Positions 574 through 60,722 of a stretch of DNA of 64,000 nucleotides are shown piece after piece. Origin of the DNA: Enterobacteria phage vB_EcoM_IME340; the sequence record MH051916; one strand, 5' to 3'. The notes beneath the pieces are model-generated. The model saw nothing but the letters and a program-made list of their open reading frames with translations. It made no database searches and was not told where the DNA came from. The position numbers were made by a program, and so were the translations under genes. Each line of letters starts with the position of its first letter. Positions within the stretch are counted from its first letter, which is position 1.

Positions 574-1270
<697 letters not shown>

Positions 1271-1282
1271 TTTCACAAAGTT

Positions 1283-1313
1283 ATTTACACGGGGTTTTAG
1301 TTGTGATACTATT
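1283..1313 (+). promoter_or_regulatory. sigma70-type early promoter (-35 ATTTAC, -10 GATACTAT)
   Basis: ATTTAC at 1283-1288 and TG-extended -10 about 16 bp downstream; upstream A/T tract. Confidence 0.5.
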
Positions 1314-1348
1314 ACCCTATCAAAACAAATGAGTGATTGGAGAATAAA

Positions 1349-1621
1349 ATGAAAACATTTAAAGAATTTATCAATGAAGCTACTTTTAACGAAAAAGTAA
1401 AAATTAGCAAAGCTGTCAAGACTTTGATTGCTGACATCAATTACCTATATGATATTGATTTAACTGACTATGTAACAGTTGGTAACAAACGTAACTTTTT
1501 CGTGTTTGACATCTCTGAACTTGACCAGAATCAAATTAACAACATTGAGCGTTTTGCTAATGATAAGGGTCTTCGTCATGAGTCAGCGGGTTATAAAAAA
1601 TACGCAATTTATTTAAAATGA
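1349..1621 (+). CDS. internal-protein-like protein with capsid-targeting N-terminus (MKTFKEFINEA)
   Basis: ATG at 1349 preceded by GGAGAATAAA; N-terminus matches T4 Ip capsid-targeting consensus; track ORF 1337 is an upstream TTG extension. Confidence 0.65.
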   Translation: MKTFKEFINEATFNEKVKISKAVKTLIADINYLYDIDLTDYVTVGNKRNFFVFDISELDQNQINNIERFANDKGLRHESAGYKKYAIYLK

Positions 1622-2628: not shown

Positions 2629-2701
2629 TGGGAATTAGCCAAGTTGGTAAGGCACTGGATTTTGATTCCAGGATGCAAAGGTTCGAGTCCTTTATTCCCA
2701 G
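2629..2701 (+). tRNA. tRNA-Gln (anticodon UUG), CCA not encoded
   Basis: Manual fold: acceptor TGGGAAT/ATTCCCA, anticodon stem CTGGA/TCCAG with loop TTTTGAT, T-loop GGTTCGAGTCC. Confidence 0.8.
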
Positions 2702-2702
2702 C

Positions 2703-2789
2703 GCGAGAATGGTCAAATTGGTAAAGGCACAGCACTTAAAATGCTGCGGAATGATTTCCTTGTGGGTTCGAGTCCCACTTCTCGCACCA
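2703..2789 (+). tRNA. tRNA-Leu (anticodon UAA), long variable arm, CCA encoded
   Basis: Acceptor GCGAGAA/TTCTCGC, anticodon loop CTTAAAA, T-loop GGTTCGAGTCC, 3' ACCA. Confidence 0.8.
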
Positions 2790-2794
2790 AATTT

Positions 2795-2868
<74 letters not shown>

Positions 2869-2878
2869 ATTTAATTTA

Positions 2879-2952
2879 CTCCGTGTAGCTCAGTTTGGTA
2901 GAGCGTCTGCTTTGGGAGCAGAATGTCGCAGGTTCAAATCCTGCCGCGGAGA
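2879..2952 (+). tRNA. tRNA-Pro (anticodon UGG), CCA not encoded
   Basis: Acceptor CTCCGTG/CGCGGAG, D-arm GCTCAGTTTGGTAGAGC, anticodon loop TTTGGGA, T-loop GGTTCAAATCC. Confidence 0.8.
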
Positions 2953-2954
2953 CT

Positions 2955-3044
2955 GGAGGCGTGGCAGAGTGGTTTAATGCACCGGTCTTGAAAACCGGCA
3001 GTCGCTCCGGCGACTCATAGGTTCAAATCCTATCGCCTCCGCCA
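2955..3044 (+). tRNA. tRNA-Ser (anticodon UGA), long variable arm
   Basis: Acceptor GGAGGCG/CGCCTCC, anticodon loop CTTGAAA, T-loop GGTTCAAATCC, 3' GCCA. Confidence 0.8.
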
Positions 3045-3049
3045 GTTTT

Positions 3050-3125
3050 GCTGATTTAGCTCAGTAGGTAGAGCACCTCACTTGTAATGAGGACGTCGGC
3101 GGTTCGATTCCGTCAATCAGCACCA
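3050..3125 (+). tRNA. tRNA-Thr (anticodon UGU)
   Basis: Acceptor GCTGATT/AATCAGC, D-arm GCTCAGTAGGTAGAGC, anticodon loop CTTGTAA, T-loop GGTTCGATTCC, 3' ACCA. Confidence 0.8.
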
Positions 3126-3126
3126 A

Positions 3127-3201
3127 GGCCCTGTAGCTGGAAGGTTCAAGCAAGCGACTCATAATCGCCAGATGGTGGTTCAATTCCACCCAGGGCCACC
3201 A
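3127..3201 (+). tRNA. tRNA with CAU anticodon (Ile2/lysidine type as in T4, or Met-like)
   Basis: Acceptor GGCCCTG/CAGGGCC, anticodon loop CTCATAA, T-loop GGTTCAATTCC, 3' ACCA; T4 carries an Ile tRNA with this anticodon. Confidence 0.7.
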
Positions 3202-3210
3202 AATTAATTT

Positions 3211-3297
3211 GGGGAGTTATCCCGTAGAGGTAGCGGTGTGGACTGTAAATTCATTGTCATTGCGACTCGGGTGGTTCGACTCCATCACTCCCCACCA
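3211..3297 (+). tRNA. tRNA-Tyr-like (anticodon GUA), class II with long variable arm
   Basis: Acceptor GGGGAGT/ACTCCCC, anticodon stem GTGGA/TTCAT with loop CTGTAAA, T-arm GGTGG-TTCGACT-CCATC, 3' ACCA; D-stem is only 3 bp so the call is less secure. Confidence 0.55.
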
Positions 3298-3301
3298 ATT
3301 T

Positions 3302-3376
3302 GGATGTGTAGCTCAATGGCAGAGCGATCGCCTGTTAAGCGATTGGTTATAGGTTCGAATCCTATCACGTCCGCCA
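3302..3376 (+). tRNA. tRNA-Asn (anticodon GUU)
   Basis: Acceptor GGATGTG/CACGTCC, D-arm GCTCAATGGCAGAGC, anticodon loop CTGTTAA, T-loop GGTTCGAATCC, 3' GCCA. Confidence 0.75.
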
Positions 3377-3380
3377 AATC

Positions 3381-3456
3381 CGAGGCATAGCTCAGAAGGA
3401 AGAGCAAGGACCTTCTAAGTCCTAGGTCGTAGGTTCGATCCCTACTGCCTCGACCA
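3381..3456 (+). tRNA. tRNA-Arg (anticodon UCU)
   Basis: Acceptor CGAGGCA/TGCCTCG, D-arm GCTCAGAAGGAAGAGC, anticodon loop CTTCTAA, T-loop GGTTCGATCCC, 3' ACCA. Confidence 0.8.
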
Positions 3457-4129: not shown

Positions 4130-4156
4130 AGCCCCGACCGAAAGGTTGGGGCTTTT
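4130..4156 (+). terminator. rho-independent terminator
   Basis: GCCCCGACC-GAAA-GGTTGGGGC hairpin followed by TTTTT. Confidence 0.7.
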
Positions 4157-4247
4157 TAGTTTGAATCACATAGAGAATGCTGTTACGGATAATAACAAAG
4201 TAATAAATAATTAATAACCAACCGATAAATTATTTCAAGGATTTTAA

Positions 4248-4811
4248 ATGAAAACCTATGCCGAGTTTTTAACCGAAGCAGCAAAATTACCATCTGAAGC
4301 AGATCTTACTAAAGTATTCTTCCACTTGGACCCAAAAGACCGCGGCGATTTTCTTAAGTGGAAAGCTAAAGCTATTGAAATGTATAACATTGATAATAGT
4401 TCTTTTACGATGAGTCAAGAAAATAAATTCAATAAAGCATTTTTCAAAATTTCTAAGAAACTGGCATCTGGCGCTCAGGTTCCTAAATCTGCCTTAGCTA
4501 CTCCTGAACGTGCACCTGTCAAAATTTCTAAGAATATGTTCGACACTAAAAAATACGTTAATGCTTTGAATAAAGCTCTTGATGCATTGGATGATGCAAA
4601 GAAGGCAGCCCGTGATCTTCAAGATGTGTACACCGATTTTGATCGTAAAACTAAAGGTTCTATTTCAAATAGCGAACGCAATAGTGTAAGTGTTTATTCT
4701 GATAGTCTTGATGTTCTTGGCGATGCGTATACTGAAATTAAAAATCGTATTAACACCGCATCTAAGCTAAAAGCTGCCGCAGAAGCTATAATAACTAAAC
4801 TAGATAAATAA
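4248..4811 (+). CDS. internal-protein-like protein (MKTYAEFLTEA N-terminus), 187 aa
   Basis: Capsid-targeting N-terminus; size similar to T4 IpIII but location differs. Confidence 0.6.
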   Translation: MKTYAEFLTEAAKLPSEADLTKVFFHLDPKDRGDFLKWKAKAIEMYNIDNSSFTMSQENKFNKAFFKISKKLASGAQVPKSALATPERAPVKISKNMFDTKKYVNALNKALDALDDAKKAARDLQDVYTDFDRKTKGSISNSERNSVSVYSDSLDVLGDAYTEIKNRINTASKLKAAAEAIITKLDK

Positions 4812-4819
4812 TTTTAAAT

Positions 4820-4845
4820 CCCTATCTAAATGATAGGGCTTTTTG
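4820..4845 (+). terminator. rho-independent terminator
   Basis: CCCTATC-TAAAT-GATAGGG hairpin followed by CTTTTT. Confidence 0.65.
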
Positions 4846-4954: not shown

Positions 4955-5051
4955 TTTAAAAATTTTTTCACAAAACTGTTTACATCCCTGTTCTTCCATG
5001 GTACTATACAACTATCAACTACTGATACAGAAAAACAACTTGGAGAATAAA
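4955..5051 (+). repeat. repeated early promoter-leader cassette (PeSL-like), copy A
   Basis: AATTTTTTCACAAAACTGTTTAC...GGTACTATACAACTATCAACT...GGAGAATAAAATG shared with copies at 20805 and 47226. Confidence 0.75.
4978..5009 (+). promoter_or_regulatory. sigma70-type early promoter
   Basis: GTTTAC 4978-4983, -10 TACTAT 5002-5007, upstream A/T-rich element. Confidence 0.65.
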
Positions 5052-5315
5052 ATGGATAATTACGGCGAACTGTTCAACTTCTTTATGAAATGTGTTTCAG
5101 AAGATTTTGGTCGTACAGTGAATGATATTAAAGTTATCGGTCCTGATCATCCGATGTTTGAAACTTACGCAGTAATGGGTAATGAAGATGGTCAGTGGTA
5201 TACTGTAAAGGTTGTGATTAACATGTTCACTGCTGAAGGTTATGTTAAACTGTCTTCTAAAGTTTACCATGATAACGATGAAATCGCAGAAGAATATTTC
5301 AATAATATGAAATAA
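5052..5315 (+). CDS. hypothetical protein
   Basis: ATG at 5052 after GGAGAATAAA; track ORF 4998 is an upstream extension through the promoter. Confidence 0.55.
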   Translation: MDNYGELFNFFMKCVSEDFGRTVNDIKVIGPDHPMFETYAVMGNEDGQWYTVKVVINMFTAEGYVKLSSKVYHDNDEIAEEYFNNMK

Positions 5316-6197: not shown

Positions 6198-6202
6198 TGA
6201 TA

Positions 6203-6220
6203 AGGGGCTTCGGCCCCTAT
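6203..6220 (+). terminator. GC hairpin with UUCG loop (terminator/RNA-stability element)
   Basis: AGGGGC-TTCG-GCCCCT; the downstream T-run is weak. Confidence 0.45.
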
Positions 6221-6238
6221 TACTTGGAGTAAATAGGA

Positions 6239-7552: not shown

Positions 7553-8795
<1,243 letters not shown>

Positions 8796-8853
8796 TGTTT
8801 ACTTCCTCCAAGGACTTTGATACTATACATTCATCAACTACTTGGAGGAAATT

Positions 8854-9267
8854 ATGACTCGTATCAATTTAACACTTGTTTCTGAACTGACCGACCAACA
8901 TCTTATGGCTGAGTATCGTGAATTACCACGCGTATTTGGTGCAGTCCGTAAACATGTTCAAAACGGTAAACGTGTAAAGGATTTTAAAATCTCTCCAACA
9001 TTTATCTTAGGCACAGGTCACGTAACATTCTTTTATGACAAACTCGAATTTTTACGTTTACGTCAAATCGAGCTAATCGCTGAATGCTTGAAACGTGGTT
9101 TCAAAATCAAGGACACGACTGTCCAGGATATTTCCGACATCCCTGTCGAATTTCGTAATAATTATGTCCCGTCCGAAGCGTCCATTGCGATAAGTCAAGC
9201 TCGCTTAGATGAAAAAATTGCTCAACGCCCTACTTGGTACAAATACTATGGTAAATCAATTTACTAA
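8854..9267 (+). CDS. denV: endonuclease V (pyrimidine-dimer DNA glycosylase)
   Basis: [28 protein letters not shown].. matches remembered T4 DenV; SD GGAGGAAATT. Confidence 0.9.
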
Positions 9268-9273
9268 GGAAAA

Positions 9274-9534
9274 ATGAAAATGTATCAAGAATTTATCGCT
9301 GAAGCAGATGCCAAAGGCCCCAAATTTAAAGTTAAAGCTTTCGTTGGTGATGCCGAAGATTTTGGCTCATTAAAACGTAATGGGTATTTTTTCTTAGGTG
9401 GTGATGGTAAAGAAATCAACACCTATGCAAAACGTAGTGAAATTGCTTATGTTGCTGCAAGTCCTAAAGTAGATGTTGACGATATTGGATACGATTTTAA
9501 CAACTTCGGAATTATTTCTGGCGGTGAAGCTTAA
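9274..9534 (+). CDS. internal-protein-like protein (MKMYQEFIAEA N-terminus)
   Basis: 86 aa ORF with capsid-targeting N-terminus. Confidence 0.6.
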   Translation: MKMYQEFIAEADAKGPKFKVKAFVGDAEDFGSLKRNGYFFLGGDGKEINTYAKRSEIAYVAASPKVDVDDIGYDFNNFGIISGGEA

Positions 9535-9537
9535 ACG

Positions 9538-9570
9538 GTTTACGCTTAAGTATTAATATGGTATAATTAC
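9538..9570 (+). promoter_or_regulatory. sigma70-type early promoter
   Basis: GTTTAC 9538-9543, -10 TGGTATAAT ending 9568. Confidence 0.55.
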
Positions 9571-9597
9571 TCTATCAAAACAAACAAGGAAACAAAA

Positions 9598-9912
9598 ATG
9601 AAAACATATAAAGAATTTATTGCAGAATCCGCCAACCAACGCGTTGAAGGTGGTTATATTTGGATTGAACAAGTTGAGCCACCGAGCCGCACTTCTACAG
9701 GTAAATGGAAAATTACTGTTGATGGTCCTGGTGGTAAACGTAGGACTCTTAAAGAAATTAATGGGTACTATGAAGAAGCTCTTTCGGATGCAGGAACTTA
9801 CATGATGCAAATCATGATTAAAAACCCTGAAAACCGTTTTGCAGCTAAAGTCTTCCGACGCATCGGTAATAAACTTTATGACGCATACTCTAAAAACTTC
9901 CCTAAAGAATAA
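9598..9912 (+). CDS. internal-protein-like protein (MKTYKEFIAESA N-terminus)
   Basis: 104 aa ORF with capsid-targeting N-terminus. Confidence 0.6.
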   Translation: MKTYKEFIAESANQRVEGGYIWIEQVEPPSRTSTGKWKITVDGPGGKRRTLKEINGYYEEALSDAGTYMMQIMIKNPENRFAAKVFRRIGNKLYDAYSKNFPKE

Positions 9913-9938
9913 CATGAATTAAAACAATAGGAACAAAA

Positions 9939-10517
9939 ATGAAAACGTATCAAGAATTTATTGCTGAAGCTTCTGTAGTAAAGGCCAAAGGCATTAATAA
10001 GGACGAGTGGAACTATCGTGGTGGAAACGGCTTTGACCCTAAAACAGCCCCTATTGAACGATACTTAGCTACAAAAGCTTCCGATTTTAAAGCTTTCGCT
10101 TGGGAAGGACTTCGCTGGCGTACCGATTTAAATATTGAAGTTGACGGACTTAAATTTGCTCATATTGAAGATGTTGTTGCTAGTAACTTAGACGCAGCTT
10201 TTGTTAAAGCCGACAGTGATCTTCGTCGCTGGAATTTAAAACTGTTCTCTAAACAAAAAGGCCCGAAGTTTGTGCCTAAAGCCGGTAAATGGGTCATTGA
10301 TAATAAATTAGCTAAGGCTGTCAACTACGCTGGTCTTGAATTCGCCAAGCACAAATCATCATGGAAAGGTCTTGATGCAATGGCTTTCCGTAAAGAATTT
10401 GCCGATGTTATGGCTAAAGGCGGCTTTAAGGCAGAAATAGATACCTCTAAAGGTACGTTTAAGGACGCTAATGTTCAGTACGCTTACGCCGTTGCTAATG
10501 CAGCCCGTGGTAATTAA
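9939..10517 (+). CDS. internal-protein-like protein (MKTYQEFIAEA N-terminus), 192 aa
   Basis: N-terminus identical to the canonical T4 Ip targeting peptide. Confidence 0.65.
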   Translation: MKTYQEFIAEASVVKAKGINKDEWNYRGGNGFDPKTAPIERYLATKASDFKAFAWEGLRWRTDLNIEVDGLKFAHIEDVVASNLDAAFVKADSDLRRWNLKLFSKQKGPKFVPKAGKWVIDNKLAKAVNYAGLEFAKHKSSWKGLDAMAFRKEFADVMAKGGFKAEIDTSKGTFKDANVQYAYAVANAARGN

Positions 10518-10694
10518 TAAGGCCGATACTTAGGCCTATTTACATTCAAATAACATGGGAACAACCTGGACCTCATGATTCTATGAGGGATTCCCGCCAA
10601 CCTGTAATAAGGTCGAGCCCAAGTGCGGTAATGGGTAAATACAGAAATGGACAATTCACGCGCCATGGAATGGCCCAAATTTAGAGAGAATAAA

Positions 10695-17035: not shown

Positions 17036-17058
17036 AGTCTCCTTCGGGAGACTTTTTT
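17036..17058 (+). terminator. rho-independent terminator
   Basis: GTCTCC-TTCG-GGAGAC hairpin followed by TTTTTT. Confidence 0.75.
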
Positions 17059-17068
17059 CATTTTACCG

Positions 17069-17101
17069 GTTTACTTTCCGTTTGAGCTGTGGTACTATAC
17101 A
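17069..17101 (+). promoter_or_regulatory. sigma70-type early promoter (shares GGTACTATACAACTATC core with the repeated cassettes)
   Basis: GTTTAC 17069-17074, -10 TACTAT 17094-17099. Confidence 0.6.
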
Positions 17102-17126
17102 ACTATCGGATAAAGAGGAGAACATC

Positions 17127-17315
17127 ATGAAAATTGAAGCACTCAATCAAGAAGGAAATATCTACGTCATCATTAACGGTGATTTTTTCGTCGACATGGA
17201 TGAAGTTACCAGTGAAGAACTTGAAGAACTTCTTAAGAAACGTTATGATATGTGTGATGAAGCTGCAACTCATATGGCGTGTGCAATATTCTCTCTTTCA
17301 TATGTGGTGGAATAA
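17127..17315 (+). CDS. small acidic protein
   Basis: ATG 17127 after AGAGGAGAACATC; 62 aa. Confidence 0.5.
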
Positions 17316-19302: not shown

Positions 19303-19764
19303 ATGATTATTAATGAAAACTCTTGGCACTATAAATTATTCAAATTGTTTAACGATGAATGGCAACGACCTAAGACACTATGCGCATATTTTTGGTCTAT
19401 TGCCATACCTACATTTTTCGTTTCTATTTTTGGGTGTGCTATACTCGTAGGGTTAACAATTATTTGTGCAGAAAGCCTACAACGTTGGCTTATTTTCGGT
19501 AGTTTATGGACTCTTCTTCCATCGGCATTTATACTTGCGCTTTTGGTTGTTTTACTTATTATCGGTTCATTTGTTATTCCTGCACATTTGCGTGAAAAAT
19601 ATAAAGATTATAAATGGAAAAAGGATTATGCTTTACACGTAGAAAATATTGATAGGGCGTATAAAGGTTTACCTCCTATTCAACCCAAGAAATCGATTAT
19701 CGTTGAATTTTTAAAAGCTCGTAAAGCTAAAGTATGTCCTGTTATTGAATATAAGGCTGAATGA
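19303..19764 (+). CDS. membrane protein
   Basis: 153 aa with three hydrophobic helices. Confidence 0.55.
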   Translation: MIINENSWHYKLFKLFNDEWQRPKTLCAYFWSIAIPTFFVSIFGCAILVGLTIICAESLQRWLIFGSLWTLLPSAFILALLVVLLIIGSFVIPAHLREKYKDYKWKKDYALHVENIDRAYKGLPPIQPKKSIIVEFLKARKAKVCPVIEYKAE

Positions 19765-20774: not shown

Positions 20775-20776
20775 TA

Positions 20777-20800
20777 GGGAGCCTTCGGGCTCCCTTTTTT
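20777..20800 (+). terminator. rho-independent terminator
   Basis: GGGAGCC-TTCG-GGCTCCC followed by TTTTTT. Confidence 0.8.
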
Positions 20801-20804
20801 ATTT

Positions 20805-20889
20805 CAAAATTTTTTTCACAAAACGGTTTACAAGCATAAAGCTTTATGGTACTATACAACTATCAACTGATACGGATTTGGAGAATAAA
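20805..20889 (+). repeat. repeated early promoter-leader cassette (PeSL-like), copy B
   Basis: Near-identical to 4955-5051 and 47226-47314 from the A/T tract through GGAGAATAAAATG. Confidence 0.75.
20825..20856 (+). promoter_or_regulatory. sigma70-type early promoter
   Basis: GTTTAC 20825-20830, -10 TACTAT 20849-20854. Confidence 0.65.
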
Positions 20890-21858
20890 ATGAAAACTGT
20901 AACTATCAATAAGGGTATCTACTTCGGTAAAGAAATCTCTGGAACTTTTGAGCTCTTAGGCGAATGGTTCCCAGATAATGCTCCGGTAGATGCACAAGGA
21001 GATGGTAAAGTTTTTGTTGAAATTGACGGTAAACGTCGCGGTGTTTGGGTTTACAAATCAGATATTTCATATGATGGTGTAAAAGTTGAAGAAGTTAAAG
21101 AATCGTATGAAGATATGAAAACCCGCATTAATAAAAGATTTAATGTTATGGGAATGATGACGAATGGTATTATTAATGGAAATATTCGTTCATTAATTAT
21201 CTCTGGCGCAGCAGGTATTGGTAAAACGTATTCTTTAGATAAAGCTTTAAATAAAGCAAATGATAATGGATACATTGAATATAAAAGCATTAATGGTAAA
21301 ATCTCTGGTATTGGTCTTTATGAGCAGCTTTGGAATAATCGTGAAGAGAATTCTGTCCTTTTGATTGATGATGTGGATGTTTTTTCTGATATGGACATTC
21401 TTAATCTTCTGAAAGCTGCTCTGGACACTGGAGAGACCCGTAAAGTCTGCTGGAGCACTGCATCTTCTTACTTAGAAGAAAAAGGCATTGACCGTGAGTT
21501 TGAATTTAAAGGAACGATTGTTTTTATCACAAACGTTGACATTGACCGCGAATTAGACCGTGGTACTAAACTTGCCCCACACTTACAAGCATTAGTGTCA
21601 CGCTCAGTTTATTTGGATTTGGGTGTTCACACTAATGAAGAAATTATGGTCAGGGTTGAAGATGTTATTCTTTCAACTGACATGATGCAAAAGCGCGGTC
21701 TTTCTGATGAAGAAACTTATAAAGCATTATCATGGATGAAAGTTAATGTTAATCGTTTACGCAATGTTTCACTGCGTACTGCTCTTTATCTTGCTGACTT
21801 TATTATGACCGACAAAAACGGTTGGGAAGAAATTGCTGAGGTTACTCTTCTGAAATAA
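20890..21858 (+). CDS. AAA+ ATPase-like protein
   Basis: ATG 20890 after GGAGAATAAA; Walker A GAAGIGKT, Walker B VLLIDDVD, sensor-like FITN; track ORF 20722 is a spurious extension through the promoter. Confidence 0.65.
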   Translation: MKTVTINKGIYFGKEISGTFELLGEWFPDNAPVDAQGDGKVFVEIDGKRRGVWVYKSDISYDGVKVEEVKESYEDMKTRINKRFNVMGMMTNGIINGNIRSLIISGAAGIGKTYSLDKALNKANDNGYIEYKSINGKISGIGLYEQLWNNREENSVLLIDDVDVFSDMDILNLLKAALDTGETRKVCWSTASSYLEEKGIDREFEFKGTIVFITNVDIDRELDRGTKLAPHLQALVSRSVYLDLGVHTNEEIMVRVEDVILSTDMMQKRGLSDEETYKALSWMKVNVNRLRNVSLRTALYLADFIMTDKNGWEEIAEVTLLK

Positions 21859-21959
21859 TTCATAAGAGGACTTCTATGACAAAAAGGCAGTTCAGAAATA
21901 GATTATATGGACTGCCATTAAAAAGATGACTAGAATTAAACTGGTAAATGGAGGTAGTG

Positions 21960-22262
21960 ATGTTATACTCAAAGGCTCGTGAAATTTACGAAACTAAGAT
22001 TAAAGAAGCTGTATTTCAATTTGCAACGACAATGCGATGGACAAATGACTGGGAGTATTCAAAAAATCATAAGAAGCCCATGGTGACAAGAAAGGCTCAC
22101 ATGTTAGTGTTAATAGACCGTGAGCAGATTAAAGCCCGAGAAGCCCTCCAGAATCATAAAAAGGCTGCCTTTGAATGGTTTATGGATAACACTGCTCCCG
22201 AGACTAAGAAAGCAGTGAGCGCATGGTTCAGTGGAAAAAATTGTGAAAGAAGTTTCTTTTAG
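21960..22262 (+). CDS. hypothetical protein
   Basis: ATG 21960 after GGAGGTAGTG; 100 aa. Confidence 0.5.
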   Translation: MLYSKAREIYETKIKEAVFQFATTMRWTNDWEYSKNHKKPMVTRKAHMLVLIDREQIKAREALQNHKKAAFEWFMDNTAPETKKAVSAWFSGKNCERSFF

Positions 22263-22264
22263 TG

Positions 22265-22296
22265 GTTTACAAGACTGTTCCTCTGTGGTACTATAC
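22265..22296 (+). promoter_or_regulatory. sigma70-type early promoter (partial PeSL-like cassette)
   Basis: GTTTAC 22265-22270, -10 TACTAT 22289-22294, followed by ACAACTATCAACT. Confidence 0.6.
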
Positions 22297-22322
22297 AACT
22301 ATCAACTACGGAGGAACACAAA

Positions 22323-22850
22323 ATGAACGCTAAAGATATTTTCAACTTGGTAAATTACAACGATGGTAAATTTAAATCTGAAGCACAAAGTAAGTTCTTT
22401 AATGACATCTCAATCGGAGGTGAAATCACTGTTGATGGAGGACAAATTTACAAATCCCGTTGGAATTGGATCGTTATTATCGATGAGATTGGTATTGTAG
22501 AAATTTACAAGAATACGAATAAAAATCGTACATTACACTGGTCTCGTGATACTAACGAACAGTACAAAAAGGATAAAGCATCTAAATTATCTCGTGTAAC
22601 TCAAGAAGATATTGAGTTCATCAAGAAAGATATTTTAATGTATGATAATTTAATTGCTGAAGAGCAAGCTGTTATTGATAAATTTGACGAGATTAAAGCT
22701 TCTCGTGAAATTCCTGATTTTATGAAAGAATCAGTGAATGAACGATACACTCTCATTTCAGAGCGTATTGAAACTTACAAAAAGCAAAGAGCTGAACGCC
22801 AAAATACTCTTCGGAAGTTTGAAGAACGGTTAAAGACGGTACTCGCATAA
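22323..22850 (+). CDS. hypothetical protein
   Basis: 175 aa ORF with SD GGAGGAACAC. Confidence 0.55.
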   Translation: MNAKDIFNLVNYNDGKFKSEAQSKFFNDISIGGEITVDGGQIYKSRWNWIVIIDEIGIVEIYKNTNKNRTLHWSRDTNEQYKKDKASKLSRVTQEDIEFIKKDILMYDNLIAEEQAVIDKFDEIKASREIPDFMKESVNERYTLISERIETYKKQRAERQNTLRKFEERLKTVLA

Positions 22851-33127: not shown

Positions 33128-33199
33128 TCACATTCTGTATATTACCATTCTAACTATCATTCACTTCTTATCATTCCCTAAAATAATTTTCACAAAGTT

Positions 33200-33231
33200 G
33201 TTTACAAGAAGTTCAAACTGTGGTATTATTA
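33200..33231 (+). promoter_or_regulatory. sigma70-type early promoter
   Basis: GTTTAC 33200-33205, -10 TGGTATTAT ending 33229; upstream TTTCACAAAG as in the repeated cassettes. Confidence 0.6.
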
Positions 33232-33259
33232 ACATATGAATTGCCTTTGAGGATTTGAT

Positions 33260-36502: not shown

Positions 36503-37705
36503 ATGAAAGTATGCATTTTTATGGCTCGAGGTCTTGAAGGTTGCGGTGTAACTAAATTTTCTCTTGAGCAGCGTGATTGGTTTATTAAAAATGGTCATGA
36601 AGTAACTTTGGTTTATGCTAAAGATAAATCATTTACTCGTAATTGCGCGCATGATTATAAGTCATTTTCAATTCCAGTTTTATTGGCAAAAGAATACGAT
36701 AAAACACTTAAGCTGGTAAATGATTGTGATATTCTAATTATCAATTCAGTTCCTGCTACTTCAGTAGAAGAAGACACCATTAATAACTATAAAAAAATTA
36801 TTGATAACATTAAACCTTCGGTTCGTGTTGTAGTTTATCAGCATGACCATTCTTCTCTTTCTTTACGCCGAAATTTGGGATTAGAAGAAACTGTTCGTCG
36901 AGCTGATGTTATTTTTAGCCATTCTGATAATGGTGATTTTAATAAAGTTTTAATGAAAGAATGGTATCCGGAAACTGTTTCTTTGTTTGATGATATTGAA
37001 GAAGCACCGACCGTATATAACTTTCAGCCTCCTATGGATATTGCGAAGGTTCGATCAACCTACTGGAAAGATGTTTCTGAAATTAACATGAATGTTAACC
37101 GTTGGATTGGTCGTACTACTACATGGAAAGGTTTTTATCAGATGTTTGATTTTCACGAAAAACATCTTAAACCTGCAGGACTAAGTACTATTATGGAAGG
37201 TCTGGAACGTTCTCCAGCGTTCATTCCTATTAAAGAAAAAGGAATTCCATACGAGTATTATCGTCTTCATCAAGTAGACCAAATTAAAATTGCTCCTAAT
37301 TTGCCAACGCAAATTCTCGACCGCTATGTAAATAGCGAAATGCTTGAACGCATGAGTAAATCCGGATTTGGTTATCAGCTAAGCAAGTTGGACAAAAAAT
37401 ATCTACAACGTTCTTTAGAATATACTCATCTCGAGCTTGGTGCATGTGGAACAATTCCGGTATTTTGGAAATCTACTGGCGAAAATTTAAAATTCCGTGT
37501 TGATAATACTCCTTTGACCTCACATGATAGCGGTATCATTTGGTTTGATGAAAATGATATGGAATCAACATTTGAACGTATTAAAGAACTGTCATCTGAC
37601 CGAGCTCTTTATGACCGTGAGCGAGAAAAAGCATATGAATTTTTGTATCAGCATCAAGATTCAAGCTTCTGCTTTAAAGAACAGTTTGACATTATTACAA
37701 AATAA
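36503..37705 (+). CDS. a-gt: DNA alpha-glucosyltransferase
   Basis: 400 aa; ..ICIFMARGLEGCGVTKFSLEQRDWFIKNGHEVTLVYAKDKSFTR.. matches remembered T4 alpha-gt. Confidence 0.9.
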   Translation: MKVCIFMARGLEGCGVTKFSLEQRDWFIKNGHEVTLVYAKDKSFTRNCAHDYKSFSIPVLLAKEYDKTLKLVNDCDILIINSVPATSVEEDTINNYKKIIDNIKPSVRVVVYQHDHSSLSLRRNLGLEETVRRADVIFSHSDNGDFNKVLMKEWYPETVSLFDDIEEAPTVYNFQPPMDIAKVRSTYWKDVSEINMNVNRWIGRTTTWKGFYQMFDFHEKHLKPAGLSTIMEGLERSPAFIPIKEKGIPYEYYRLHQVDQIKIAPNLPTQILDRYVNSEMLERMSKSGFGYQLSKLDKKYLQRSLEYTHLELGACGTIPVFWKSTGENLKFRVDNTPLTSHDSGIIWFDENDMESTFERIKELSSDRALYDREREKAYEFLYQHQDSSFCFKEQFDIITK

Positions 37706-37725
37706 AGGGCTTCGGCCCTTTAGCT
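37705..37725 (+). terminator. GC hairpin with UUCG loop (probable terminator)
   Basis: AAGGGC-TTCG-GCCCTT followed by a T-rich tract. Confidence 0.55.
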
Positions 37726-37744
37726 TTATACGGAGTTTGATATA

Positions 37745-41725: not shown

Positions 41726-42412
41726 ATGAAACTGTCTAAAGATACTACTGCTCTGCTTAAAAATTTCGCTACTATTAACTCTGGTATTATGCTTAAATCC
41801 GGTCAATTTATTATGACTCGCGCGGTTAATGGTACAACTTATGCAGAAGCAAATATTTCTGACACTATTGATTTTGATGTAGCAATTTATGATTTGAACG
41901 GTTTTCTCGGTATTCTGTCTCTAGTTAATGACGATGCAGAAATTTCCCAGTCAGAAGACGGTAATATTAAAATTGCTGATGCTCGTTCAACAATTTTTTG
42001 GCCAGCAGCCGATCCGAGTACAGTAGTTGCTCCTAATAAACCAATTCCATTCCCAGTAGCATCTGTTGTTACTGAAATTAAAGCTGAAGACCTTCAACAG
42101 CTATTGCGTGTATCTCGTGGTCTGCAGATTGATACAATCGCTATCACAGTAAAAGAAGGTAAAATCGTAATTAACGGTTTTAATAAAGTAGAAGATTCTG
42201 CTTTGACCCGTGTTAAATATTCTTTGACTCTTGGTGATTATGATGGTGAAAACACATTTAATTTCATTATCAATATGGCAAATATGAAAATGCAACCAGG
42301 AAATTATAAACTTCTGCTCTGGGCAAAAGGTAAACAAGGTGCTGCTAAATTTGAAGGTGAACACGCGAATTATGTAGTAGCTCTTGAAGCTGATTCTACC
42401 CACGATTTTTAA
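41726..42412 (+). CDS. 45: sliding clamp gp45
   Basis: 228 aa; T4 gene order and size. Confidence 0.9.
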   Translation: MKLSKDTTALLKNFATINSGIMLKSGQFIMTRAVNGTTYAEANISDTIDFDVAIYDLNGFLGILSLVNDDAEISQSEDGNIKIADARSTIFWPAADPSTVVAPNKPIPFPVASVVTEIKAEDLQQLLRVSRGLQIDTIAITVKEGKIVINGFNKVEDSALTRVKYSLTLGDYDGENTFNFIINMANMKMQPGNYKLLLWAKGKQGAAKFEGEHANYVVALEADSTHDF

Positions 42413-42414
42413 TA

Positions 42415-42435
42415 GAGGGCTTCGGCCCTTTATAA
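42415..42435 (+). terminator. GC hairpin with UUCG loop (terminator)
   Basis: GAGGGC-TTCG-GCCCTT followed by TATAATTT. Confidence 0.5.
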
Positions 42436-42463
42436 TTTACACTAAAACTTGAATGAGGAAATT

Positions 42464-44358: not shown

Positions 44359-44380
44359 GCAAGGGGCTTCGGCCCCTTAT
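44359..44380 (+). terminator. rho-independent terminator
   Basis: AAGGGGC-TTCG-GCCCCTT followed by ATTT. Confidence 0.6.
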
Positions 44381-44436
44381 TTGGAGTATAATATATCAAG
44401 AGCCTAATAACTCGGGCTATAAACTAAGGAATATCT

Positions 44437-47133: not shown

Positions 47134-47146
47134 TAGAATAAATCTA

Positions 47147-47167
47147 GGGACCTCCGGGTCCCTTTTT
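47147..47167 (+). terminator. rho-independent terminator
   Basis: GGGACC-TCCG-GGTCCC followed by TTTTT. Confidence 0.8.
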
Positions 47168-47225
47168 CATACAAGTAATATAAATCTATACTTAGGAAAA
47201 ATAGGTGATTCTGGACTTCTGGAAT

Positions 47226-47314
47226 TCATTAAAATTTTTTTCACAAAACTGTTTACAAGACTGTTCTTCCGTGGTACTATACAACTATCAACTGATACGG
47301 ATTTGGAGAATGAA
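47226..47314 (+). repeat. repeated early promoter-leader cassette (PeSL-like), copy C
   Basis: Matches copies at 4955 and 20805 including GGTACTATACAACTATCAACTGATACGGATTTGGAGAAT. Confidence 0.75.
47251..47282 (+). promoter_or_regulatory. sigma70-type early promoter
   Basis: GTTTAC 47251-47256, -10 TACTAT 47275-47280. Confidence 0.65.
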
Positions 47315-47695
47315 ATGAAAATCGCTATTTTGGTTATTACATTGGGTCTTACTGGTTGTGTAGCTCAAGGACCGGTAGTAAATCAATCTGATGTAGGAAA
47401 AATTGTAAACTGTTCAAGCAAATTTTATAATCCTAATGTTAAGTGTTATAAAGAAGCTCCAAAACAGACAGTAGAACAAATGCAGGCGAATTTTGACGAA
47501 GCTATTCGTCCAGATGAATCTGCCCAAGCATATCGTAATTCAGATGTAATTACACGCGAAGAAAAAATTGAAAGCTACTGCGCTGAACTTTGGGCAAATT
47601 GGGCTAATAATTACCAATGGCGTACTGGTAAAAATGCTCCGATGGAGTATGTAGTGAATTCTTATAATTCATGTGTAAAAAATTTGACTAAGTGA
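47315..47695 (+). CDS. lipoprotein
   Basis: ATG 47315; signal peptide with lipobox LTGC; track ORF 47126 is a spurious extension through the promoter. Confidence 0.6.
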   Translation: MKIAILVITLGLTGCVAQGPVVNQSDVGKIVNCSSKFYNPNVKCYKEAPKQTVEQMQANFDEAIRPDESAQAYRNSDVITREEKIESYCAELWANWANNYQWRTGKNAPMEYVVNSYNSCVKNLTK

Positions 47696-52965: not shown

Positions 52966-53208
52966 ATGCATACGGTTTTATTTAAACCTACTCCGTATAA
53001 CGTCAGGAAAAATACTCAATTCAAAGCACTTATTGCAGATACGTGGGAATTGGTGTTAGATATTCCAGCAGAAGAAAGTCCTCCATTTGGTCGAGTGGAA
53101 TTTATTAAGTTTGCTGTGCGCCCTACGAAGCGACAGATTCGTCAATGCAAAAGATACTTTCGTAAAATAGTCAAGTTAGAGAAACAGTTATTGATGCTAG
53201 TAAAATAG
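52966..53208 (+). CDS. hypothetical protein (61.4 position)
   Basis: ATG 52966 after GAGGGTAAT; 80 aa. Confidence 0.5.
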   Translation: MHTVLFKPTPYNVRKNTQFKALIADTWELVLDIPAEESPPFGRVEFIKFAVRPTKRQIRQCKRYFRKIVKLEKQLLMLVK

Positions 53209-53210
53209 TA

Positions 53211-53242
53211 GTTTACAAGCTGATAGAGTTGTGTTATAGTAA
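53211..53242 (+). promoter_or_regulatory. sigma70-type early promoter
   Basis: GTTTAC 53211-53216, -10 TATAGT 53235-53240. Confidence 0.55.
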
Positions 53243-53271
53243 TTCTATCAGCTAATCGCGGAGAAAAGAAA

Positions 53272-53526
53272 ATGATGCTAGTTAATAGAGAATATCAGTT
53301 TAAATCAGAAGAAGATTTGGAAAAATTCGCAAGTGGTTGTGAACTGAATAGACGCACAGCTAAAGTCATAGGATTAAAACCCTTTACAGTTCTAGATTGT
53401 GAAGTTTCTAAATTCCGCAGAGGGTGTTCTATTAGCGGTCATGCTCTGGTTGATGGGAACACATTTTTCTTTGTTTTTAGCGTCAGAGAACTTTTATTGA
53501 TTAACGAACTTGAGGAAATAAAATAG
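53272..53526 (+). CDS. hypothetical protein
   Basis: 84 aa ORF. Confidence 0.5.
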   Translation: MMLVNREYQFKSEEDLEKFASGCELNRRTAKVIGLKPFTVLDCEVSKFRRGCSISGHALVDGNTFFFVFSVRELLLINELEEIK

Positions 53527-53889: not shown

Positions 53890-54246
53890 ATGTATAGTTC
53901 TGAATTTTCATATTTAAAAATGGAAAAAATTTCATACGATTTTATAGATGAAAAGGTTTATTACAGTTTCCATGAACCACGTTTTAATAGTGAGGTTGGG
54001 TTTATTGTAGTAAAAGACAATTTTATTTTAAAAATATATTCGGCGTTAAAGGATTTTCACTACGAAAATATTAACCTAAAATTTGATAAAGAAAACGTTC
54101 GAAATTGTGCAGTAACAATTACAGGAAATAAAGATACATGTGTTATGCTATCTGATGAAATTAATGATTTGCTAAATGACGCAGAAAGGGTTGCTATTCC
54201 ATCAATTGATGACCAAATTTTTAATGCTTTTATGAATAGAGGTTAA
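53890..54246 (+). CDS. hypothetical protein (61.2 position)
   Basis: 118 aa ORF. Confidence 0.5.
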   Translation: MYSSEFSYLKMEKISYDFIDEKVYYSFHEPRFNSEVGFIVVKDNFILKIYSALKDFHYENINLKFDKENVRNCAVTITGNKDTCVMLSDEINDLLNDAERVAIPSIDDQIFNAFMNRG

Positions 54247-54247
54247 T

Positions 54248-54412
54248 ATGAAAACATATAAAGAATTTATCAAAGAAGATATGGTAGCTGGAGATTCAGG
54301 TGGTAATCCTGAAAATATCTCTACTGGAACAACGTCAGGTGCTGTAGTAAATAAAGGTCCTGAACAGATTCCTAAAAAGAAAAAAGAGGAATCTAAAGAA
54401 AAAGAAGAGTAA
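54248..54412 (+). CDS. small protein with internal-protein-like N-terminus (MKTYKEFIKE), 54 aa
   Basis: ATG after GAGGTTAAT; capsid-targeting-like N-terminus; Gly/Lys-rich tail. Confidence 0.4.
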   Translation: MKTYKEFIKEDMVAGDSGGNPENISTGTTSGAVVNKGPEQIPKKKKEESKEKEE

Positions 54413-60634: not shown

Positions 60635-60690
60635 TGGAAGGACTTAGATTCATTATACCATGAAAGTTTTAAAGCATTTTTCATAAAGTT

Positions 60691-60722
60691 GTTTACAAGC
60701 TGAAGTAAAAATGTTATAGTAT
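60691..60722 (+). promoter_or_regulatory. sigma70-type early promoter
   Basis: GTTTAC 60691-60696, -10 TATAGT 60715-60720. Confidence 0.55.

Follow-up and report, generated by a model that had tools for sequence, protein, structure and literature searches.

The repeated regulatory units analysed here belong to an already known phenomenon, that of the promoter-early stem-loop (PeSL) elements, which was published in 2010 and 2014 with T4 and PST included. The PeSL concept is that of Arbiol et al. 2010 (PMC2839356) and Comeau et al. 2014 (PMC4122927), the latter covering the T4/PST pair with the same promoter form as found here, namely TTTACW N17 TAYWAT with AT-rich sequence upstream and a Shine-Dalgarno sequence and ATG behind it. 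For RB49 and phi1, the crossovers were placed by the PeSL authors either between the -10 hexamer and the ATG or in the AT-rich tract (PMC2839356, PMC4122927). The promoters of such units are those of T4 early genes in general, with GTTTAC at -36 to -31 (PMC1524935, Nolan et al. 2006), and have been described as the 'uber' UP/-35/TGn/-10 type with extra consensus regions (PMC2988021, Hinton 2010). The consensus of a strong RegB site is GGAGRAYARAA, or GG*AGRAYARAA with the cut marked (PMC3014915, Uzan and Miller 2010). Two further comparisons are found in the PeSL papers: shuffling at the IP locus of T-even phages (Repoila et al. 1994, as cited in PMC4122927 and PMC2839356), and the gene cassettes of integrons together with the lambdoid 'morons', which are given as analogies in PMC2839356.

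The 64-kb stretch of DNA analysed as a whole (hereafter the window) is the early-gene region of a T4-like phage (Tequatrovirus), the closest records to which, at about 95-96% identity, are UFV13 and SF2-1. Early transcription in it runs along the + strand, and its gene order leads from 1/57A/57B/ipI and the tRNAs over e.8 to e, regB, tk, rI, mobD.x and nrdC.11 to nrdC; beyond nrdC it continues by way of gene 43 and imm as far as dda/dexA. In this region one extended unit of early promoter and leader is present five times, before e.8 (cassette A), nrdC.10 (B), imm.1 (C), nrdC.8 (D) and mobD.5 (E). The 21-mer GGTACTATACAACTATCAACT, which spans the -10 hexamer and the start site, is exact at 5000, 20848, 22287 and 47273 (A, B, D and C respectively) and recurs with 3 mismatches at 17091 (E), while 100 shuffles gave none. 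Upstream of it, TTTCACAAAACNGTTTAC is exact at 4966, 20814 and 47239 and present with 2-3 mismatches at 1271, 33188 and 60679. The original prediction had listed the main copies at 4955-5051, 20805-20889 and 47226-47314, and all three were found there. Its partial copies (1270-1348, 17069-17126, 22265-22322 and 33185-33240) are all real early-promoter units, but the one before nrdC.8 turned out to be a full member of the family with an exact 21-mer, extending over 22243-22322, and an upstream-half copy at 60670-60699 had been missed. The features concerned are the following.

1261..1351, + strand: related early promoter unit, with the upstream half TTTCACAAAGTTATTTACA and the 3' end GGAGAATAAAATG (1339-1351) as in the family and a different middle
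4820..4844, + strand: terminator-like hairpin (stem-loop 4820-4838), CCCTATC-TAAAT-GATAGGG then CTTTTT, which ends the inserted ORF 4248-4811
4955..5051, + strand: cassette A, before e.8; A/T-rich UP region, TTTCACAAAAC at 4966-4976, -35 TTTACA at 4979-4984, TGn at 4999-5001, -10 TACTAT at 5002-5007, 21-mer at 5000-5020, putative start near A5014
5042-5052, + strand: 3' end of cassette A, GGAGAATAAAA, a Shine-Dalgarno sequence and RegB consensus match; ATG at 5052
5052..5315, + strand: e.8, 87 aa, conserved T-even gene of unknown function, behind cassette A
17037..17126, + strand: cassette E, before mobD.5; UUCG-loop hairpin (17037-17052) then a T run, directly upstream; -35 at 17070-17075, -10 at 17093-17098, 21-mer core with 3 mismatches at 17091-17111, GGAGAAC at 17117-17123, ATG at 17127
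20776..20801, + strand: UUCG-loop intrinsic terminator after nrdC.11 (hairpin 20776-20795), 6-9 nt upstream of cassette B
20802..20889, + strand: cassette B, before nrdC.10; TTTCACAAAAC at 20814-20824, -35 at 20827-20832, -10 at 20850-20855, 21-mer at 20848-20868
20880-20890, + strand: 3' end of cassette B, GGAGAATAAAA; ATG at 20890
20890..21858, + strand: nrdC.10, 322 aa, conserved, with P-loop NTPase matches below the Pfam threshold
22243..22322, + strand: cassette D, before nrdC.8; -35 at 22266-22271, -10 at 22289-22294, exact 21-mer at 22287-22307, GGAGGAAC at 22310-22317, ATG at 22323
33178..33242, + strand: related early promoter, in which only the upstream half TTTTCACAAAGTTGTTTACA is common to the family
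47146..47168, + strand: UCCG-loop terminator after gene 43 (DNA polymerase; hairpin 47146-47163), 62 nt upstream of cassette C
47226..47314, + strand: cassette C, before imm.1; TTTCACAAAAC at 47239-47249, -35 at 47252-47257, -10 at 47275-47280, 21-mer at 47273-47293
47305-47315, + strand: 3' end of cassette C, GGAGAATGAAA, with 1 mismatch to the RegB consensus; ATG at 47315
47315..47695, + strand: imm.1, 126 aa, with a lipobox (LTGC) and a DUF5481 match, followed by imm and gene 42
60670..60720, + strand: further early promoter with the same upstream half (copy at 60670-60699), TTTTCATAAAGTTGTTTACA

The stem-loop of the PeSL units is thus present to different degrees: it is directly attached in B and E and lies 62 nt upstream of C and 117 nt upstream of A, for which 4820-4838 is the nearest hairpin, and none was found upstream of D. 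Both B and C had been predicted to follow UUCG-loop terminators directly, which holds for B and not for the UCCG-loop terminator behind gene 43. The hairpin upstream of A marks the left edge of an e.8 block common to T4 and T2. At D, the nrdC.9 ORF (21948-22262) stops 4 nt before the -35 hexamer and, consequently, overlies the upstream part of the cassette.

In order to compare the cassettes with one another, they were aligned on the -35 hexamer from -26 to +49 (75 nt), and the identities obtained were 0.83 for A-C, 0.80 for B-C, 0.73 for A-B, 0.69 for both A-D and C-D, and 0.65 for B-D, against 0.46 +/- 0.06 (maximum 0.63) for the 105 pairs formed by 15 other early promoters of the window. 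Such identities, far above those of the other early promoters, indicate that the similarity exceeds generic hexamers, and the near-identical extended modules of the original prediction are therefore upheld. The sharing is mosaic: the UP region is common to A, B and C, the spacer to C, D and roughly A, and the leader to B and C. In the 17-nt spacer, C and D are 0.88 identical and A and C 0.76; over the 20 nt past the -10 hexamer, B and C are identical at 20/20 positions and their match runs on to ATGAAAA. Three sub-motifs recur at several loci, namely the upstream half TTTTTTCACAAAAC-GTTTAC, the 21-mer, and the 3' end GGAGAATAAAATGAAAA. A loose scan of the window returned about 20 promoters of the early type, every one of them on the + strand and just 5' of an ATG, and a scan of IMG/VR for exact GGTACTATACAACTATCAACT gave 20 loci only, on few T4-like contigs.

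Resemblance of this kind could also arise by functional convergence or constraint, selection having acted on each copy independently for very high early-promoter strength and an effective ribosome-binding site, and no exchange having taken place. Much of the common sequence is indeed functional consensus (UP element, GTTTAC, TGn, -10, the CTATCAA after the -10 and GGAG). The excess identity, on the other hand, sits partly where general promoter function makes no demand, as it spans the spacer (C-D) and a B-C leader of no known function at a level far above the 15 other early promoters.

Each unit is built in the order UP element, GTTTACA, 17-nt spacer ending in TGG (TGn), TACTAT, conserved ACAACTATCAACT, leader of 20-35 nt, GGAG and ATG. 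TTTACA-17 nt-TACTAT with an upstream TG is found in A, B and C, and D and E are built alike; the UP element, TTAAAAATTTTTTCACAAAAC 5' of the -35 hexamer, is common to A, B and C, with a weaker version in D. All sequence features of a T4-type early promoter are present, from GTTTAC at -36 to -31, spacer, TGn, -10 and UP element to the start-site consensus, and the units stand at positions orthologous to T4 sites and in the early orientation, while the T4 GenBank and RefSeq records themselves are without promoter features. Unlike the general T4 early consensus, the five copies form a tighter subfamily with a common exact 21-mer, common spacers and common leaders.

A structured leader or riboregulator was also sought in the cassettes, and folding was no better than that of shuffled sequence (z from -0.4 to +0.8), with predicted folds of 0 to -3 kcal/mol, like those of the shuffles, in which GGAG is unpaired; around copy A, Rfam returned only tRNAs. 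In A (5042-5052) and B (20880-20890), GGAGAATAAAA is an exact match to the RegB consensus, while C has 1 mismatch and D and E have GGAG only. Exact matches to GGAGRAYARAA number 4 in the 64 kb against 0.47 expected, and all four, A and B among them, stand directly before the ATG of an early unit. As in known RegB/S1 sites, GGAGAATAAAA of A and B is intergenic, located at the ribosome-binding site of an early gene and predicted to be unpaired, a likeness by sequence. The leader ends of A and B are consequently predicted to be strong RegB/S1 cleavage sites.

On the established T4 model, a cassette of this kind would work as follows. The terminator, where present, would insulate it from the upstream unit, and the UP element, GTTTACA, 17-nt spacer ending in TGn and TACTAT would recruit the host sigma-70 RNA polymerase immediately after infection. 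Transcription would start in the conserved ACAACTATCAACT and give a short unstructured leader, the end of which would provide the GGAG Shine-Dalgarno sequence and ATG and, in A and B, also a RegB/S1 site, GG^AGAATAAAA. A RegB cut in the ribosome-binding site would then be expected to inactivate the A and B messages minutes later.

The same five cassettes were found at the same loci in T4, T2, T6 and UFV13, the one departure being the imm.1 site of T2, at which an additional ORF, T2_046, has been inserted under the control of the cassette and is followed by imm.1. Identity is 0.88-0.99 between orthologous cassettes and, on average, 0.66 between paralogs of the same genome. Judged from these alignments, all five cassettes are old, with orthologous copies in this phage, T4, T2, T6 and UFV13, a stability at orthologous loci that convergence also accounts for.

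The genes behind cassettes A, B and C had been taken for recently acquired cargo, such that the cassettes would mark newly mobilised promoter-plus-gene units with e.8, nrdC.10 and imm.1 as late acquisitions. The near-identical cassettes do precede genes whose proteins have no Pfam family in common, in agreement with the prediction that they are unrelated, and small inserted modules do occur at such sites in other phages. Variable presence of the three genes among relatives was not borne out, however: most of each query (the e.8, nrdC.10 and imm.1 regions) is found in 297-495 phage records (Tequatrovirus), in T4, T2, T6 and UFV13 each of the three genes occupies the same locus and follows the same cassette, and T4-like phages at a greater distance, e.g. 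JS10 and moha, still have a recognisable nrdC.10 with a DNA identity of about 80%. The truly variable modules of the window lie elsewhere, at 4161-4819 and 53190-53518. Since the three genes are present in about 500 sequenced relatives, they are not recent cargo; gene distribution rules out this reading for e.8, nrdC.10 and imm.1, and it is left very improbable. Of the functions suggested for their products, the lipoprotein is backed by the lipobox of imm.1, while AAA+ for nrdC.10 finds P-loop matches, all of them below the Pfam threshold.

A different annotation is found in the T6 RefSeq record, in which a misc_feature 'attL' lies on the imm.1 cassette, as if the repeats were att sites of an integrated element. 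The repeat is, however, a promoter before conserved early genes of a virulent phage, in five direct copies with no integrase context, and the CDS notes of the T6 record ('similar to PHAGE_…') resemble automatic prophage-finder output, which would pair any direct repeats. The att-site reading was rejected on promoter identity and the lack of integrase context, and its probability is negligible.

While the genes behind the cassettes are stable, the junctions at B and C are not. At site B (nrdC.11|nrdC.10), at least 5 length classes or alleles are present among the sampled genomes. T2 has there a 161-aa modA-like ORF, both flanks of which consist of terminator, TTTTATTTCAAAAATTTTT(T)CACAAA and promoter; the window has the upstream terminator of T2 joined to the downstream promoter, an arrangement that a crossover within the AT-rich tract would be expected to leave behind. 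DalCa carries two small ORFs (orfX and a DUF4031 gene), AV122 a 66-aa ORF, and slur14 both the DalCa and the AV122 modules, stacked in tandem and each with its own promoter. In these three phages the B promoter of the site has been preserved as far as CTATCAA, with the insert now under its control; nrdC.10 has kept GGAGAATAAAATGAAAACTG, and the early promoter ahead of it is another one, which came with the module. In phiC600P9, 49 bp comprising the UP element, -35 and spacer are lost from site B.

Site C (43|imm.1) shows three downstream states. In the empty one, that of the window and T4, imm.1 lies directly behind the cassette, in what looks like a fusion at ATGAAAAT; in the second, an 83-aa ORF of the T2_046 type is present (31/516 records, including the closest relative UFV13); and in the third, which is the commonest among the sampled rows, a different 78-aa ORF of the HY03 type. 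In the occupied alleles, imm.1 retains a plain GAGGAAATTATTATG ribosome-binding site. Read against these genomes, the window carries the empty allele at both B and C, insertion sites that other phages have filled.

The cassette of the imm.1 site was then compared between 9 genomes. Its spacer is of the C type, AAGACTGTTCTTCC, in the window, T4 and RB27, identical to that of A, ATCCCTGTTCTTCCA, in T6 and PST and nearly so in HY03 and ime09, and identical to that of D, AAGACTGTTCCTCTG, in T2 and GEP001. The leader is of the B type in the window, T6, PST, ime09, GEP001 and HY03, an A/B hybrid in T4, and of the D type in T2 and RB27. Most combinations of spacer type, leader type and the three downstream states occur in these 9 genomes, with the 21-mer as the switch point, and the T4 paralogs A and C are more identical to each other (0.91) than the T4 C copy is to its C orthologs in the window and T6 (0.87-0.88). 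Exact A-type or D-type spacers with different leaders at the imm.1 locus are not predicted by convergence, which is accordingly held to be improbable as an account of the family.

Genome comparison shows that exchange within the sub-motifs gave mosaic cassettes and that small promoter-plus-ORF modules were inserted, stacked, replaced and deleted at nrdC.11|nrdC.10 and likewise at 43|imm.1. The recurring sub-motifs would then act as portable homology for the phage's own recombination system, by the mechanism proposed in the PeSL literature, in which extrachromosomal mini-circles formed during infection (PMC2839356) would be possible intermediates.

Regarding the reach of this exchange, recombination at the cassettes is supported at B and C only, where the aligned junctions lie inside cassette sub-motifs. 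Indel boundaries, scored with crude gene calls in four relatives (T4, T2, part of T6 and part of UFV13), fell at 8/19 promoter-bearing junctions and 35/106 other gene junctions, a difference that is not significant (Fisher p=0.30), as convergence would also have it; no claim is therefore made that the cassettes are the dominant indel sites. Site D, with its exact 21-mer but without stem-loop or intergenic slack, is invariant in 28 sampled full-length matches, and loss of the nrdC.10-nrdC.9 segment between B and D, the 21-mers of which are 1,439 bp apart, was seen in no sampled genome. The flanks of site A vary between relatives. From these comparisons the cassettes are demonstrably exchange points at B and C, and that they are the main driver of plasticity is not established. 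The original prediction of PeSL-type units as substrates of shuffling thus named the right type of element and is in line with the modules inserted, replaced and deleted at B and C, but neither the window-wide junction test nor the invariance of D extends it further.

It could also be that the indels at B and C are the work of homing endonucleases or of microhomology-mediated illegitimate recombination and landed in intergenic DNA by chance, with the cassettes as bystanders. Homing-endonuclease genes account for many of the other indels in the window (mobD, segB and, in T6 and RB14, an endonuclease ORF behind nrdC.10), the junction test is not significant, and some junctions share only 7-9 nt of identity (ATGAAAAT, GGGCTTTTT), so that microhomology-mediated illegitimate recombination fits them as well as homologous exchange. 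No insert at B or C, however, has an endonuclease annotation, and when the insert products were compared by tblastn with the window, T4, T2, T6 and UFV13, no second locus was found, with only a weak modA match for T2_097. Moreover, independent alleles repeatedly have their left junctions at one and the same point of the cassette (CTATCAA), a long direct repeat made up of terminator tail and UP element stands on either side of the T2 insert, and the slur14 modules follow one another in tandem, each with its own promoter. Chance landing is consequently unlikely. As no insert ORF was found at a second locus, the relocation of one ORF between cassette sites is not demonstrated.

A more specific proposal would make the 21-mer itself the preferred crossover point, for example if breaks or strand invasion were favoured where RNA polymerase opens the DNA, which would uncouple the upstream half from the leader-plus-gene half. 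There is rather little probability in this proposal; if it were true, gene modules would dock at a defined subclass of early promoters in a quasi-site-specific manner. The reassortment of spacer and leader at imm.1 and the repeated CTATCAA junctions at nrdC.10 are compatible with such a crossover point and equally with ordinary homologous recombination.

Compared with the systems described above, the closest likeness is to PeSL, in the optional stem-loop, AT-rich tract, TTTACW N17 TAYWAT promoter, Shine-Dalgarno sequence and ATG, in the hyperplastic early regions, in the small ORFs beside cassettes that are inserted, replaced and deleted in close relatives, in crossovers at CTATCAA and the UP tract, and in the chimeric cassettes. 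Unlike in PeSL, the genes behind these copies are conserved and are not ORFans; the likeness is known here from sequence. The pattern of the IP locus is itself seen in the window, where variable small genes are bordered by repeats of promoter and 5' coding sequence, the latter encoding capsid-targeting N-termini (families D2/D3). Homology at that locus reaches into the coding sequence, while that of cassettes A to E ends at about ATGAAAA. With integron cassettes and morons the units have in common that small self-contained gene modules gather at defined intergenic sites. Unlike in those systems, the promoter travels with the module or is common to it, and, unlike in integrons, there is no integrase and no attC, exchange appearing to depend on the homology of regulatory sequences.

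Taken together, the cassettes are very probably complete immediate-early expression units of T-even phages, present as old orthologous copies, the sub-motifs of which can serve as homology patches, with exchange at B and C. The reach of this finding is limited, in that it concerns the known architecture of T-even early regulatory cassettes and no new kind of element. It offers a worked example of docking sites with several alleles, nrdC.11|nrdC.10 and 43|imm.1, at which small early genes have been stacked, exchanged or lost, and it may be of use for the annotation of Tequatrovirus genomes, e.g. in avoiding false 'att' calls, for the choice of candidate neutral insertion sites in the engineering of T4-like phages, and for the design of a pan-genome test of the PeSL hypothesis.

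At the nrdC.11/nrdC.10 promoter, phage phiC600P9 carries a natural 49-bp deletion (position about 495-505 in the phiC600P9 sequence compared, counterpart of window 20797-20846), by which UP element, -35 and spacer are all lost and only the -10 and the leader are left. Just 3' of nrdC.10 (window 21839-21865), an insert of ~700 bp, whose product is a DNA endonuclease of the intron-like homing type, was found in T6, RB14, RB33, RB7 and IME537. This indel adjoins the cassette region but has a different cause, being endonuclease-driven. In the T6 RefSeq record (NC_054907), the feature annotated as 'attL' at 19507-19546 is the imm.1 promoter cassette, counterpart of the window copy at 47226-47314, and the annotation almost certainly arose as a false call by prophage-finding software, which paired the repeated promoter copies.

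The strong RegB consensus is matched exactly at only four places in the window, and in all four cases an early promoter unit has its ATG directly 3' of the match.

Exact matches to GGAGRAYARAA
1339-1349
2049-2059
5042-5052
20880-20890

Upstream of e.8, a 659-bp insert (4161-4819, with the ORF 4248-4811) is present in the window and in UFV13 and is missing in T4 and T2. It sits between the e.8 block and a terminator (4132-4157) which aligns to T4 sequence just 3' of rnaC. Each end of the insert is the 3' half of a terminator hairpin (hairpins at 4132-4157 and 4820-4844) with GGGCTTTTT as its final sequence, and the junction is therefore located in stem-loop sequence, not in the promoter. Terminator hairpins with a UUCG tetraloop form a family dispersed over the region, at the ends of gene blocks.

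Hairpins of the GGGGC-TTCG-GCCCC type
6200-6225
37702-37727
42412-42437
44359-44384
17037-17052
20776-20795

The tRNA genes of the window form a single cluster at 2629-3456, from which the homing-endonuclease gene segB is absent; they number ten, compared with eight in T4 (Gln, Leu, Gly, Pro, Ser, Thr, Met, Tyr, Asn and Arg in the window).

A second repeat family in the window consists of the 5' ends of small-gene coding sequences.

Members of the 5' coding repeat family
1346-1409
1679-1742
9271-9334
9595-9658
9936-9999
54245-54308

These repeats encode MKT(F/Y)xEF..EA, a motif similar to the N-terminus by which internal proteins of T4 are targeted to the capsid, and the product of ORF 4248-4811 likewise starts with MKTYAEFLTEA. 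The segments varying most relative to T4 and T2 (1370-2021 and 8510-10545) are flanked by repeats of this family.

At 53190-53518, a module made of a promoter (at 53212) and an 84-aa ORF (53272-53526) is lacking in T4, T2 and T6 alike, and it is inserted directly upstream of the -35 belonging to the early promoter that follows (53527). The original prediction had proposed recently acquired 'cargo' genes behind the cassettes; what a cassette-flanked 'cargo' gene actually looks like in the window is this promoter-plus-ORF module.
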